From Eledone cirrhosa (lineage: Eukaryota): a DNA stretch of 64,000 nt. Below the pieces are notes generated by a model. It ran no database searches, was not told the DNA's origin, and saw nothing but the letters and a program-made list of their open reading frames with translations. The translations under genes and the position numbers were made by a program. The stretch is from the NCBI GenBank assembly GCA_964016885.1, contig OZ024740.1, positions 338,520,001 through 338,584,000 of the forward strand, in the 5' to 3' direction. Below, piece by piece: positions 23,963 through 64,000 of this stretch. Positions within the stretch are counted from its first letter, which is position 1. Every line of letters starts with the position of its first letter.

Positions 23963-24400
23963 CAGGCACACATATATATATATATATGTACGTATCAGTT
24001 TAGCGGACATTTATTATAATGTCCGCTTTGTCCGTTTGTAAACAAACGGACAGCCTGATTTATGCCGTACGGTGTTAAGGCAACCACGTCACCTTTTTGT
24101 TCAACACTGACACAGGAACGATGTACTAGTTTCAAGCTTGTTAGCTATCGTCAGCACCGTATACCCTTCTGCCAGATGGTTGAACGTTCGAAAGTATATA
24201 CTTTCTTTATGAAAATTAACGGCTGAGCAGCCTAATTTGCATATCGAGTGAGTTCAGTCGGCCAGGCGCACCGAAAACGATAAAATGGAATAGAATGAAA
24301 TGAAATTTCATTTCTCACTCTTAGTACGGCACTTACTTAAATGTAAGTATGTATGTATACGTACATACATATATGCATACAGACGTACAGTAGCATGTAT
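23788..24400 (-). mobile_element. Retrozyme-like element, about 493-nt unit with about 120-bp terminal redundancy
   Basis: taaaatggaatag... at 23788 and 24281; HHR inside; (TA)n flanks. Confidence 0.8.
24119..24159 (-). ncRNA. Minimal type I HHR
   Basis: rc: cggtg CTGACGA t-agct(aaca)agct-t GAAA ctag TA catcg. Confidence 0.85.
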
Positions 24401-34019: not shown

Positions 34020-34310
34020 TATTAATAAAATAGATCTTCTTTTGATCAATTACATTTTATTATACATATTTCGGATGTACAACAGTACGTCCTCATCAGA
34101 CAAAATATAATGATACATGACATACCCTGAGATGTTAAATGGTTAAGATTTAATCAATGACTACCTTGATTAAATCTTAACCATTTAACATCTCAGGGTA
34201 TGTCATGTATCATTATATTTTGTCTGATGAGGACGTACTGTTGTACATCCGAAATATGTATAATAAAATGTAATTGATCAAAAGAACATCTATTTTATTA
34301 ATACTTATAT
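34015..34310. mobile_element. Near-perfect foldback (about 143-bp arms) with HHRs at 34049-34111(-) and 34212-34274(+)
   Basis: Arms meet at about 34158-34167; HHR fold as at 32051. Confidence 0.88.
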
Positions 34311-50229: not shown

Positions 50230-52180
50230 ATACTTGGGGAGGGTCATATTTGCGTAATATTGCCAGAATTAATAACAGAACACACTCACTGTTTGGTTGG
50301 TTTTCGCTTCTCGCTGTCTTTTATTATATCTGCGATCTAACTTATTCGGTCCTCAATGTTGCCATTGACTGACCGGCGGTCAAAAATAATACAGATACAA
50401 TATAGACACAAACACATATATATATATATAGTTTACATAATTTACATAAATCTTTCGTTGCACATCTGCAACATCGTCAGTGGTGTTATATTCATTGTTC
50501 CTCCTGTTGTGTTGTATGTCTACGCCATTTTTTATTCAGTCTGTCTATATATTTATTTATTTATTTGCTTGTTTGTTAATCTTATTTTATTTTGTCTTCT
50601 TTGCGCATGCGTTTGCGTGTGTGTATAGTGTTATGTGTGATGTGTGACTAGTGTGTATAGTGTTGTGTCTGCTGGGTGACTAGTGTGTGTTTATGTGCTT
50701 GTTGTTATTGTGCTTGTGTATGTATTTATTTATCTTATTTTATTTAATTTTATTTACTTATTTATACTTCTCTTAGGTCAGTGTTGTTTGTTTGGGTGTT
50801 GTTGTTGTTCCACTCATTCTTTCTGTTTAGCTTTGGTCTTCTAATTTCTATTTCACTGGCCTCTCTGATTTGCCTATCTGCTGGGTCATTCCTATGTTTA
50901 GATATTATTCTAATTTCTATGTTGTCTATGTTACCGTCATGTTGTTGTCTAGCATGTTCGTATAGTACTGACCCGTTTTTTCGTCCTTTTAGTTCCCCCC
51001 AGTGTTGGTCTATCCTTTCACCTATGCTACGAGCTGTCTCACCTATGTATGTTTTTGTCATGTTTCTGCAAGTACCCTCTGTACATCTTATGCTATAGAC
51101 TACGTTTCTAGTTTTACAGTTTATCCGGGGGTTCACCTTACATATGATACACTTCCTATTGGTACAGTGGGTTTTCTTAAAAGGGTAGGTTTTGCTGATC
51201 AGGGATTTTATGGTGGTTCCTGGCTTTTCTACCACCTTTATTTTTAAGTGGGTCTTTCTCAGGGCCTTTCTACACTGGTTAGCTAATTTCCCTCCAGGGG
51301 TGGCGTCCACAAACATGACACTCTGATATCTCTGGTTGTCGTACCATGATGTGGCCTTCCCTATCTTATGTCTAGCCCTATCTAAGCTATTCCATGATTT
51401 GCTCCTGTATAGTGGGCAGATTCCTTTCATGTCCAGTTCTATGAGGGTCTTATACTTTTCCATGGCTCCTTCGTATACTCTGACTCTGTCTCTTTGGTTG
51501 TAGCCAGAGAACTGCATGCGGTTGATGAAGTGTTGGATGTGTCCTTCCATTTCTGTTGGGTCGCACATGCTGGACACATTCTTCATCACTCGTACCAAAT
51601 CTGCGATCAGAATATTAAACTTAGCACTACTGGACATTACTGAGTTTTTGAGTATCAGGTATTTGGAGGCCATGGGTTTAGCATAGTGTGAGTGGAGAAT
51701 TTGGGCTCTCTCGTCTATAGTGTTAATCCAGAGTTCTGTGACTAATACAGGTAGTCTATTGTTAGGGTGTTTGGAAGGGAAGTCTATAGTTACAGTTATA
51801 CTCTGGTGTATGGAATTAGCTATCTGCTGGATGCTTTCCATCGTGCTACGTTCTAAATCAAACTTGTTAGTGCTCTCTAGTGGGGGTGTTCTTATAACTA
51901 TATTGATATCATCTACATAACGAGAGTACATGATGAGGTCTATGGAGCTTTCATTAAGGAGATCTTTAAGTCTCCTTTCCCACCATACCATGAAAAGGTT
52001 AGCAACATCACCAGCTATGCTGACGCCGATGGCTGCTCCCTCATTTTGGGTGTAGATTTTCTCATTGAACTTAAATATGTGGCCCTTTAGGGTAGTTTTG
52101 ATACTAGCCCCTATTGCATGTGCGACCATTTTTCTTACCTGATCAGTGTTTTGGGGGGTCCGTATGGCTTTGGTCCACCC
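50227..52180 (-). mobile_element. 5'-truncated Penelope-like retroelement inserted in (TA)n
   Basis: RT-EN ORF, then about 535-bp 3' region with HHR core at about 50443-50485 (CTGACGA t gttgca/tgcaac GAAA); (TA)n on both sides. Confidence 0.92.
50762..52129 (-). CDS. PLE RT (motifs 4-7, thumb), Cys-rich linker and C-terminal GIY-YIG endonuclease; N-terminally truncated
   Basis: QNEGAAIG, RYVDD, LPVL, C-x4-CxxC-x7-C, NVVYSIRC...YIGETARSIGERIDQH...H...H...E...LN; the frame stays open upstream to about 52180. Confidence 0.92.
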   Translation of the reverse strand: MVAHAIGASIKTTLKGHIFKFNEKIYTQNEGAAIGVSIAGDVANLFMVWWERRLKDLLNESSIDLIMYSRYVDDINIVIRTPPLESTNKFDLERSTMESIQQIANSIHQSITVTIDFPSKHPNNRLPVLVTELWINTIDERAQILHSHYAKPMASKYLILKNSVMSSSAKFNILIADLVRVMKNVSSMCDPTEMEGHIQHFINRMQFSGYNQRDRVRVYEGAMEKYKTLIELDMKGICPLYRSKSWNSLDRARHKIGKATSWYDNQRYQSVMFVDATPGGKLANQCRKALRKTHLKIKVVEKPGTTIKSLISKTYPFKKTHCTNRKCIICKVNPRINCKTRNVVYSIRCTEGTCRNMTKTYIGETARSIGERIDQHWGELKGRKNGSVLYEHARQQHDGNIDNIEIRIISKHRNDPADRQIREASEIEIRRPKLNRKNEWNNNNTQTNNTDLREV

Positions 52181-52185
52181 AATAA

Positions 52186-52271
<86 letters not shown>

Positions 52272-53870: not shown

Positions 53871-54560
53871 ATATATGTTTTATGTGTATTTGGTGTATAC
53901 GTTCGTATGTGTGCGGGTACAGGCGTTGCGTGCGTTTTTGTATGTGTGCGCGTGTTTTTTTGTGTACGTGTCTGTATTTGCATACCTATGGCGGGTGTTT
54001 TCGCGTATGCATGTGTATGTACGTATATGGATGCGTGCATGTATATATTTAATTATTGTTGATTTCAATAACCTCTGTAATTTATTTACATTATTCTTAA
54101 CTCTGAAGCCGAGAATCATTCGGTTTCCTAAATAGTATTTTAGTCTACGACTTCAGTTATACCATAAACGTAGTTTTGTCTTTGCGCGTAATTGTTCTCA
54201 TCGCTCCACATAATGACGTATTATCGTCGTTTTTTTCGTTCATTGCCAGGGAACGTCTTCACGAACCACCTAATTAGTCTACGACTTCATTTATACCATA
54301 AACGTGGTTTTGTCTTTTCGTGTAATTGTTTTCACCGCTCCAAATAATGACGTATTATCTTCGTTTTTTTCCCGTTCTTTGCCAGGGAACGTATCTACGA
54401 ACCAAAGTATCGTCTTCCTGTCTTCCTTCGGTTGCAACGTTTTTTAAAATATTTACTTCTGCGTTTACAGATTGATTTTTTTAGTTTCAGAAGATCCCGT
54501 TAAGGGTGAAAGCAACGAATCTTTGCTTAAAATTTAATCTGTTATTTTAATAAATATTTG
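52280..54560. repeat. Repeat family in diverged direct (52280-52530, 52735-52980) and inverted (54120-54560) copies; end fragment also at 63938-64000
   Basis: tttattaaaataacagattaaattttaagc...gttcgtggagacgttc versus its reverse complement at 54300-54556. Confidence 0.7.
53330..53592 (+). mobile_element. Helitron-like 3' portion
   Basis: acccgagcaacgactggt...gCTAGt resembles the 43896-43923 end. Confidence 0.55.
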
Positions 54561-54642
54561 CTCTACGGTTCTTATATATTTGATATATATTTATCCTTAT
54601 CGAGCCCTCTTTGGATTTTAGTCTTCAAATTTATTATTATTA

Positions 54643-60931: not shown

Positions 60932-61393
60932 ACTCTCCCGTCGATATCCGACGTATGAGTGTCCAACAAAAGTTAAATGTGAGAAAGTGAACTGATGTTG
61001 AACTACGCACACAAAGTTTTGTTTTAAGGGGTGTAGGCTTGTGTAGGATCAACCAAACTTTTTGGAACTGACGACACATATCTTCGGTGCAAATGTTTGC
61101 CATGGAAAATACGACAGCCCCCAGCTTTTTATGGCTCAGAGTTTAACCTCTCCGTATATTTAAAAAAAAAAACTATTTGGATGAACGTTGACTCTGCTGA
61201 GTTCCTCCTCCCTTTGCCGGGTCTTGTATTTTATCCCGGAGGGTGTCCAAATATTACCCCCCTCACCAAGAAAACTTGGTGGGATTGCCGGTTTAGTCGC
61301 CGACAACCCAACCATGAGACAGGTTGTACTGGGTTACATATTACCAGCAGCGCTCGAAAGCGACCGTACATAATATACATATATATATATATA

Positions 61394-61995
61394 TGGGGAG
61401 GGTCATATTTGTGTAATAATATTAACAGAATTAATAACAGAACACACTCGCTGTTTCATAAGATTTTCGTAGTTGTCTCTGTGGCTTAGCGGTGGGTACT
61501 AGAGACGATGGAGATCCTGGCCTTGTGTTCAATCCTGGTCAAGAGATACATGAAAACTTTTTCAGTTTTTATTTTACAACCAATAGAAAAAAACTGAAAA
61601 GGTTTACCCGGAACCCTACACCCCGAGCTGGGTTGAACTTCAGATTAGGATCACCACCGTCTACGATTCCTCCAACTAGGCCACCGAGAGGGCTACGAAA
61701 GTGTAATGAAAATTGATAATTATAAACCTACTTTCAAAATCGAAGTTAAAAATATGTGGTGTCGTTCATGGCTTTCCTATAGCTATTAGTAATATTTAGG
61801 GTCTACTTCTGGTCATTATCGAAAGTCTCTGGATTTGGCAAAATACATAATATTTTTCCGCAAAAATTTGATTGCACTATTTAGTTTTCGAAAATGTTAT
61901 TTATTCATTATAAAAATTCAATGATAGCATTCTATATATAGGTGGGCCCCCTTCATCTCTTGGCAACCAATATTTTTAGACCCAGTCCGCTCCTG
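61394..61995 (-). mobile_element. Non-coding element with PLE-type tail and two inverted degenerate tRNA-like units; related copy at about 60455-60800
   Basis: Tail gggagggtcatatttg..aataacagaacacactc as at 50236; A/B boxes on both strands. Confidence 0.6.
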
Positions 61996-62903: not shown

Positions 62904-62943
<40 letters not shown>

Positions 62944-63277
62944 AAAGTTCTATTTAAATTGTTGGGATACAACAAGCAAATATTTTTATAACTGATATAA
63001 AGCACTCGACAAATATTTGGAGTAGATATATGATATTAATAAATGGAAACTATATTTATAAAACCATATTTATTTCATTATATATATTTCAAGGATACCA
63101 AGTTAAATTATGGTATGCCTTCAAAATACAATATATAACAAGTAAGTATGTTTTGAAACAGTGAGCGAGTTTGAAATTAGAAAATATATAGCTTTCACCG
63201 TATTTTTTTTTAACTAAAGGAATTTTAGCTTGATAACGGGGTTTAGAACCCTCAGATAAATGGAAAAATATGAGTAT

Positions 63278-63348
63278 TGACGTACATGGGAGTCGAACCC
63301 ACATCGGTGGTTATCGCGACCACTGTGCTACCATTACACCAACACATC
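63278..63348 (-). ncRNA. tRNA-like cloverleaf (inverted copy)
   Basis: gatgtgt tg gtg(taatggtag)cac a gtggt(cgcgata)accac cgat gtggg(ttcgact)cccat gtacgtc a. Confidence 0.7.
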
Positions 63349-63523
63349 ACCCGTCTCTTTCCATTCAAATTAGAAACAAGCTAAAATTCCTTTAGTTAAA
63401 AAAAAATACGGTGAAAGCTATATATTTTCTAATTTCAAACTCGCTCACTGTTTCAAAACATACTTACTTGCCATTTAAACTCGCTAAGAATGTAGTTTCT
63501 AATTTGAATGGAAAGAGACGAGT

Positions 63524-63594
63524 GATGTGTTGGTGTAATGGTAGCACAGTGGTCGCGATAACCATAGATGTGGGTTCGACTCCCATGTACGTCA
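63524..63594 (+). ncRNA. tRNA-like cloverleaf with A and B boxes and T5 about 10 nt downstream
   Basis: 7-bp acceptor (3 GU), D, anticodon and T arms; loop CG-CGA-TA lacks U33. Confidence 0.72.
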
Positions 63595-63794
63595 ATACTC
63601 ACCTTTTTCCATTTATCTGAGGGTTCTAAACCCCGTTATCAAGCTAAAATATATAACAGTTTTATAAATAGACATTGACGTACCCTTTTAAAAAGTGACC
63701 GTTGCTTTTGGAGACCATCGGGATGGCCTCCAAAAGCAACGGTCACTTTTTAAAAGGGTACGTCAATGTCTATTTATAAAATTGTTATATATTG

Positions 63795-63859
63795 TATTTT
63801 GTCTGATGAAGGCATACCATAATTTAACTTGGTATCCTTGAAATATATATAATGAAATA
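63795..63859 (+). ncRNA. Minimal HHR in a multiply inverted element (about 63025-63900)
   Basis: tattttgt CTGATGA aggcatacca..tggtatcctt GAAA tatata TA atgaaata. Confidence 0.82.
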
Positions 63860-63898
63860 AATATGGTTTTATAAATATAGTTTCCATTTATTAATATC

Positions 63899-63939
<41 letters not shown>

Positions 63940-64000
63940 TAAATCTGTTATTTTAATAAATATTTGCTCTAGGGTTCTTATATATTTGATATATATTTAT

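Follow-up and report, generated by a model that had tools for sequence, protein, structure and literature searches.

A tRNA-bearing tandem element inserted into a hammerhead-bearing fold-back element in Eledone cirrhosa

The window analysed here is a 64,000-nucleotide stretch of the Eledone cirrhosa genome (assembly GCA_964016885.1, contig OZ024740.1, positions 338,520,001 to 338,584,000, forward strand), and all coordinates are counted from its first letter. Near its right-hand end lie two tRNA-like cloverleaves in opposite orientation, both within a 512-bp two-armed insert (63139-63650) of a repeat family, here called T, which splits a separate fold-back element of a second family, P (Table 1). 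ARAGORN called both cloverleaves as tRNA-Ser(CGA), and both were recovered with Rfam model RF00005 (gathering score 29), at 44.3 bits (E 3.8e-6) for the plus-strand copy and 42.4 bits (E 1.3e-5) for the inverted copy. All four stems are paired in each, with three G-U pairs in the acceptor stem, and pair 27-43 is G27-U43 in the plus-strand cloverleaf and G27-C43 in the minus-strand one. In the former, an A box (63531-63541) and a B box (63576-63584) stand at tRNA spacing, the anticodon loop reads C-G-CGA-U-A, the variable region comprises 4 nt, and a T5 run (63605-63609) follows 10 nt past the cloverleaf. Folding energies of the two did not rise above those of shuffled sequences (z 0.40 and 0.10), a comparison that says little for an unmodified tRNA.

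The initial annotation, made from the letters alone, had described this cloverleaf with its paired arms, A and B boxes and T5 run, as well as an inverted copy at 63278, and the ARAGORN calls, the RF00005 matches and the sequence bear out both. The odd anticodon loop that it had pointed to (G33, CGA and a short variable arm) is likewise present, G33 and CGA being typical of one subfamily only. Its view that the cloverleaf is not a decoding tRNA also holds: with G33 and U37, a 4-nt variable region and a pair 27-43 that is formed in 3 of 20 aligned copies, it lacks the U33, purine 37, long variable arm and stems intact across copies of a functional tRNA-Ser. The annotation made no mention of the two-armed insert that holds both cloverleaves and splits P.

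Table 1 Features of the T and P elements in the window
Feature	Position	Strand	Evidence and remarks
tRNA-like cloverleaf, plus arm	63524-63594	+	ARAGORN, Rfam; D arm as in tRNA-Gln, A and B boxes
tRNA-like cloverleaf, inverted copy in minus arm	63278-63348	-	ARAGORN, Rfam
T tail-bearing arm, 239 nt, 0.92 unit, 3' end at common tail end point	63139-63377	-	Alignment to T monomer
T tail, ~37 nt, AC-rich, monomer ~54-90	63139-63175	-	Clustering of outer ends
T tail-less arm, 274 nt, 1.06 units, early end at monomer ~11	63377-63650	+	Alignment to T monomer
T leader, 5' strand of predicted 17-19-bp helix around cloverleaf	63505-63523	+	Fold prediction
T trailer, 3' strand of that helix, contains T5 run 63605-63609	63597-63615	+	Sequence; fold prediction
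Target duplication, left copy AATATATAACA	63130-63140	+	Repeat search; single in L004
Target duplication, right copy AATATATAACA	63648-63658	+	Repeat search; single in L004
Family P fold-back element, ~460 bp, split here by T	62941-63899	.	Window = reference 1-205 + 192-456 of L004 (uninterrupted copy)
One-sided ~90-nt extension of P left arm	62941-63030	-	Comparison of P loci
P left-arm hammerhead	63031-63140	-	Compared with L004
P central hairpin, fold-back centre 63720/63721	63645-63796	.	Inverted-repeat and fold analysis
P right-arm type I hammerhead	63773-63882	+	Type I descriptor; fold

Family P is a ~360-bp palindrome, each arm of which contains a hammerhead, together with a ~90-bp one-sided extension, and it is sited between (TA)n tracts; this layout is drawn from top-scoring copies, and other layouts may exist. 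Most of 17 P loci have the extension on a single arm, and one (L014) has it on neither. In the right-arm hammerhead, the type I descriptor placed the CUGAUGA core at 63803-63809 and GAAA at 63840-63843; helix III is an 8-nt palindrome, helix II opens with an A-U pair and has one C-C mismatch, and cleavage is predicted after A63851 (H17). Judged by its sequence, the motif is a Penelope-like element (PLE)-type minimal type I hammerhead in its cores, helices and UH site. A hammerhead had been announced at 63795; the ribozyme motif is real, but that position falls in helix I, 8 nt ahead of the core. In the left-arm hammerhead, a 7-nt deletion after 63123 has removed most of the CUGAUGA core relative to the uninterrupted copy. 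Rfam at its gathering threshold left the P hammerhead uncalled, and is therefore a weak guide to ribozymes. Overall, P is a fold-back of two PLE-type ends of the ordinary sort.

Elsewhere the window has additional CUGANGA...GAAA motifs, which belong to several families, at 24154, 25419, 32101, 34099, 37807, 41812 and 42278 on the minus strand and at 34224 and 42708 on the plus strand, the inverted pair 34099/34224 being related to P (73% over 146 nt). A 501-aa open frame at 50762-52267 on the minus strand carries RT-like and GIY-YIG-like motifs by eye, had no match in Pfam, and is followed by a CUGACGA...GAAA hammerhead-like motif at 50480 on the same strand. Close copies of this region are present in several other loci, and it appears PLE-like, a fragment of another family.

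The relationship between cloverleaf and hammerhead was examined genome-wide. A query spanning both (63500-63900) gave 2,494 candidates in the 3.0-Gb genome; among the 40 scored places, query bases 1-140 were matched at the window alone; at the remaining places the match is to the hammerhead part and, in nearly all of them, on both strands. A query from within the insert (63377-63645) gave 2,277 candidates, the best full-length matches being 94-97% identical and defining family T with its 259-nt unit. Among the copies sampled, the window was the sole case of co-occurrence: the cloverleaf pattern was found in 1 of 17 P loci, and a P core within 600 nt downstream of the cloverleaf in 1 of 74 sampled copies. 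Another hammerhead lies 259-518 nt downstream in four other rows (three loci) among the cloverleaf copies. In 2,995,841,428 bases, an exact 25-nt pattern spanning the join of T and P has a single match, and the 11-bp AATATATAACA, single in the uninterrupted P copy, is duplicated around T, this duplication being partly microhomology with the end of T. The unique junction, the independence of the two families and the flanking duplication together show that the apparent tRNA-hammerhead hybrid is a nested insertion of T within the left arm of an unrelated P element. The initial annotation had instead suggested the cloverleaf as the Pol III head of a possible SINE/retrozyme unit containing the hammerhead, which lies on the same strand 209 nt away, and such a unit has been published, the schistosome Sm-alpha, in which a hammerhead comes after a Pol III promoter (PMC6765202) and which is similar to tRNA-Gln-derived copies (PMC2770079); the junction, the two single co-occurrences and the target duplication make this extremely improbable here and rule it out as a family property, a chimeric read-through RNA at this one locus being possible. 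Independence of the cloverleaf from the hammerhead family is the very result that the annotation had named as refuting its idea. The flagged hybrid is an accident of nesting without a message of its own, and the tRNA-bearing family T matters more; what the window supplies is the proof of nesting, the subfamily structure of T and the counts of its break points.

Family T is built of tandem non-coding units of a few hundred nucleotides. A degenerate pattern of cloverleaf and trailer had at least 1,335 exact matches in the genome (control, 0), a figure taken as a lower bound and split between the strands as 357 and 978. Units range from 259 to 290 nt across the sampled subfamilies, all of which retain the cloverleaf and both boxes: T1 (259 nt) has the loop CGCGATA, T2 the loop CTGGATA, and T3 (289-290 nt) the loop CTGGATA with an altered acceptor end. 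The T5 run 10 nt after the cloverleaf is common to all of them, and a T4 run also stands ahead of the tail. Two opposed arms, diverging from a variable inner junction, were found in 22 of 24 T loci, although in one of the 22 (L054) the second arm is a 23-nt piece. Across these 24 loci the arms extend to as much as 2.5 units. Most T1 outer ends lie at monomer 87-94 or 45-55, and most lead into (TA)n; in the window copy they are at monomer 90 and, less typically, 11. The gap of ~37 nt between the two outer ends is AC-rich on the tRNA-sense strand, and in T3 the end clusters lie ~65 nt apart (173-175 versus 239). The two-armed tandem layout, the fixed outer ends ~37 nt apart and the (TA)n targets are therefore shown directly by the copies. 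A rise in read depth over the tail had raised the idea that the tail is shared with other families, but 60 tail-anchored loci proved to be 5'-truncated T copies. T is also present in assembled sequencing-run contigs, including those of a second organism (3 + 6 contigs), where one 278-nt contig holds cloverleaf and tail together.

The search for a hammerhead within T itself gave no descriptor match to type I in T1, T3, another T copy (L158) or the window insert (up to 1 core mismatch, both strands), and no exact CUGANGA core in T1 or T3 on either strand. The one-mismatch CTGAGGG of T1 and T2 is lost in T3 and L168, and no near-core is common to the subfamilies. In a multi-unit T locus, Rfam at E up to 10 returned tRNA-type and sub-threshold matches only. 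Hammerheads in a non-circularly permuted order (SGC/CSG) need a CUGANGA block C (PMC10085705), and the lack of a conserved core in T excludes the permuted forms that depend on it as well. A search for T copies devoid of the tRNA gave 0 matches in the genome.

Several other repeats accompany these elements. A 67-nt stretch present at 63934-64000 and 54528-54594 (95% alike) belongs to another repeat, which frequently adjoins (TA)n in the neighbourhood of T and P copies. At 61190-61370, a GC-rich segment with several short hairpins and no Rfam match is inserted beside (TA)n. The region 61455-61850 is an abundant distinct repeat, for which there were 2,509 candidates, the best of them 87-89% identical. 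It has long imperfect inverted arms ~67% alike and inward-facing tRNA-type A/B-box heads at ~61477-61550 (+) and 61620-61690 (-); ARAGORN with relaxed settings called tRNA-Arg(CCT) in 2 of 12 copies, and the repeat resembles a MITE whose arms carry SINE heads.

The tRNA domain of T was compared with the genome's own tRNA genes and among T copies. Positions 8-26, comprising the D arm and A box, are identical to tRNA-Gln at 17 of 18 nt, and identity elsewhere is 3/7 and 2/8 in the acceptor, 8/17 in the anticodon arm and 9/17 in the T arm. Approximately 29 tRNA-Gln genes and decayed copies are clustered at C1:168.21-168.28 Mb (L063-L091), among them variants with a CUA anticodon (L065 and L067). 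Position 33 is G in 12 and U in 19 of 31 sampled T copies, the latter mostly with GGA. Among the 20 aligned copies, a selection made to cover the subfamilies, eight, all of subfamily T3, do not form pairs 1-72 and 2-71; the youngest subfamily pairs 27-43, and most copies do not. None of 40 pairs of the cloverleaf or outer helix showed change on both sides in these copies, giving no sign of covariation. Prediction gives a high probability to an enclosing leader-trailer helix of 17-19 bp that has a 3-nt bulge at the discriminator; in that context the D and T arms reach a predicted pairing of only 0.3-0.4 (one copy), and the T-loop and D-loop elbow residues are intact in sequence. The T leader looks like an inverted copy of the trailer whose departures, three of them fixed and one polymorphic, put a leader G against a U; these would fit A-to-G RNA editing of the hairpin if the change ran in that direction.

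T has the insertion marks of a non-autonomous PLE, namely an inverted 5'-truncated copy beside a partial tandem, a one-sided tail of 30-40 nt and an AT-rich or (TA)n target with a short duplication. Published PLE insertions combine partial tandems with a neighbouring copy that is inverted and 5'-truncated, and they have a one-sided 30-40-bp tail and (TA)n targets (PMC8557442, PMC3846280). In vitro, two internal RT start sites in an AC-rich stem-loop bound the tail, and both target strands are extended (PMC11167929). The one-sided extension of P, at ~90 nt, departs from this in being longer than the published 30-40-nt tail. From the shared marks we consider it very likely that PLE enzymes drove the insertion of both T and P. 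The initial annotation had proposed PLE mobilisation; T bears the Penelope-like marks for it, but the single cloverleaf-plus-hammerhead element that was to be mobilised does not exist.

The genome is rich in GIY-YIG elements (10,597 candidates, 150 scored), and no sequence common to T was seen in 30 GIY-YIG loci drawn from these candidates. Inspection of the 60 tail-anchored loci showed no coding sequence joined to the T tail, and three T motifs were absent from published Naiad, Chlamys and Hydra consensus files, in which line breaks or strand could hide a match.

We propose that a PLE reverse transcriptase/GIY-YIG protein would nick AT-rich DNA and that tRNA-sense T RNA would then be copied from two start points on either side of the tail, giving back-to-back arms. 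As arms extend to 2.5 units, the template RNA would exceed one unit and be either a multimer or a circle. Copying would usually stall at the folded T arm and acceptor stem of the cloverleaf, a short palindrome (CATG/GTAC) could join the arms, and the tRNA part would act as an internal Pol III promoter, with an upstream unit driving downstream ones as proposed for Sm-alpha. Taken as a whole, a nested insertion with both families brought in by borrowed PLE enzymes and with the T tRNA as promoter is a probable account of the locus.

Variation among copies bears on the form of the template. Differences within one T insertion amount to 2.1-2.3%, against 2.6% between loci, and variation among young T copies is star-like, so that circle and array are not separable from the copies. 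Shared rare calls numbered 7 in 3,601 tandem site pairs, 6 of them from L046, and 16 in 6,979 cross-arm pairs, 11 of them from L046 and L058. In L046 (1496-2024), a pair of tandem units in one arm has two rare variants in common that the other arm does not show, and in L058 five rare variants are common to both arms, which hints at two templates in L046 and one in L058.

The points at which T copies break off were mapped in two tail-anchored sets, in which 76 of 82 mapped arms were kept, with outer ends at index 130-245. Of the arms reaching tRNA index 75, 39 of 57 end at index 55-75 (25 of 37 with one count per insertion), and the break-off rate there is ~10 times the per-base rate just downstream; this zone was picked after the data were seen, and its P value is therefore overstated. 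The mode falls at index 61-64, at the CATG/GTAC palindrome and a few bases 3' of A58 (index 56). Twelve arms reach tRNA +1, of which four end at -8..+12 and eight continue upstream, and a single-unit Pol III transcript was thus not the only template. In the older arm set, seven arms end at index 72-75. The modified base m1A58 is a block to reverse transcriptase. We infer that the enzyme stalls at the folded T arm or acceptor stem, perhaps at m1A58, and that the palindrome lets two cDNAs join. PLEs may, however, copy an antisense template (PMC3846280), in which case the stalling argument would reverse.

Three readings of the tRNA part were weighed. That it serves as the internal Pol III promoter of T, the likeliest of the three, strikes us as an evenly balanced proposition, to which the A and B boxes at tRNA spacing lend their weight. 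The boxes look steadier than the cloverleaf: they are retained in copies whose anticodon loop, pair 27-43 and top acceptor pairs differ, although one sample was picked by those same boxes, whose conservation is partly built into the search pattern. T runs terminate Pol III, and the T5 run 10 nt after the cloverleaf and the T4 run ahead of the tail should stop it, so the promoter model needs read-through of both; the eight of 12 arms that continue upstream of +1 also speak against it.

Less probable, though to be taken seriously, is the reading of the tRNA part as a passenger or folding aid, a captured tRNA or SINE head in an element that would be read through from host Pol II units and of which only the tail region matters to the PLE enzyme. 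Because so many arms stop at index 55-75, most copies are without most of the cloverleaf, and both the T runs between promoter and tail and the lack of covariation agree with this reading. The cloverleaf and both boxes are nevertheless kept in every sampled subfamily, and together with the tail in the contig from the second organism, no tRNA-less unit was found in the genome, and the youngest subfamily pairs 27-43.

An RNase P/RNase Z signal that replaces the hammerhead, with end cuts freeing the unit RNA and the enclosing helix aiding circle ligation, is unlikely. The intact elbow residues, the predicted leader-trailer helix with its bulge at the discriminator, the arms ending at -8..+12 and, in the older set, at index 72-75, and the presence of arms longer than one unit would all be in keeping with it. 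The genome-wide search for tRNA-less copies without a match, the top acceptor pairs broken in 8 of 20 copies, the low pairing of the D and T arms in context and the absence of covariation are not, and the processing signal offered as an option in the initial annotation thus went unsupported.

It is very improbable that the cloverleaf is a tRNA gene or pseudogene of the ordinary kind, or that T is a foldback or MITE amplified at the DNA level without an RNA step, despite the ARAGORN and Rfam tRNA calls and the insert's resemblance to inverted repeats: at least 1,335 copies lie inside a larger repeat, the window loop is without U33 and purine 37, the flanks of real tRNA-Gln genes are unrelated to T, and, in contrast to terminal inverted repeats, T has two dissimilar outer ends and an inversion point that varies by copy.

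More tentatively, T could be one of an undescribed class of Penelope-dependent, ribozyme-free elements, in which a tRNA domain, possibly with m1A58, would do the hammerhead's job (through Pol III and/or RNase P/Z and a circle) and would reliably stall the PLE reverse transcriptase; we hold this to be possible but rather doubtful. If true, thousands of genomic copies record the start and stop of a PLE reverse transcriptase.

Short retro-elements with tRNA-derived heads are known as SINEs, and the tRNA-derived SINEs are mobilised by LINEs. T resembles them as a short non-coding retro-element with tRNA-derived A and B boxes; unlike in these SINEs, its tRNA is internal to a permuted tandem, its copies are two-armed, and it is without a poly(A) or simple-repeat tail of its own. 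In its tandems, inverted 5'-truncated copy, tail, (TA)n targets and short target duplication, T is like the endonuclease-bearing PLEs and the non-autonomous derivatives of Chlamys, MRC1 among them (Craig et al. 2021, PMC8557442; PMC3846280; Frangieh et al. 2024, PMC11167929), and Naiads and most Chlamys, like T, are without a canonical hammerhead. In contrast to those PLEs, T has no ORF and carries a tRNA-derived domain, a feature that the cited portions of these papers do not describe for them.

As a small non-coding tandem unit, T is also comparable to metazoan non-LTR retrozymes, for which PLE-dependence has been proposed (PMC7229834; bioRxiv 10.64898/2026.07.22.740005), but their defining hammerhead is absent from it. 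P, for its part, shares with non-LTR retrozymes the minimal type I hammerhead and palindromic helix III, and differs, in the copies sampled, in being a fold-back pair of ends and not a head-to-tail array. In the schistosome elements Sm-alpha and Sj-alpha (PMC6765202, PMC2770079), a tRNA-derived Pol III promoter with similarity to tRNA-Gln stands in a tandem unit as in T, and for Sm-alpha an upstream unit has been proposed to transcribe downstream ones (PMC6765202), a parallel to the promoter model of T. Each Sm-alpha unit contains a hammerhead, whereas T has none, and the sections of these sources that cover Sm-alpha describe neither PLE-type inverted arms nor a tail. Had the hybrid first suggested for this window been real, it would have been a new member of the Sm-alpha kind; being without a hammerhead, T stands outside both the non-LTR retrozymes and Sm-alpha.

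A tRNA-bearing, hammerhead-free PLE derivative was not found described in the open-access literature searched, Repbase and Dfam lying outside this scope, and an octopus repeat annotation gives SINE and Penelope classes and, in the part of the source cited, no class of tRNA-bearing PLE derivatives (PMC13282606). PLE retrotransposition is poorly understood, and T provides a small natural substrate with two fixed starts and one strong stop. With these, both the hammerhead's role and the model of two starts put forward by Frangieh et al. can be put to the test.
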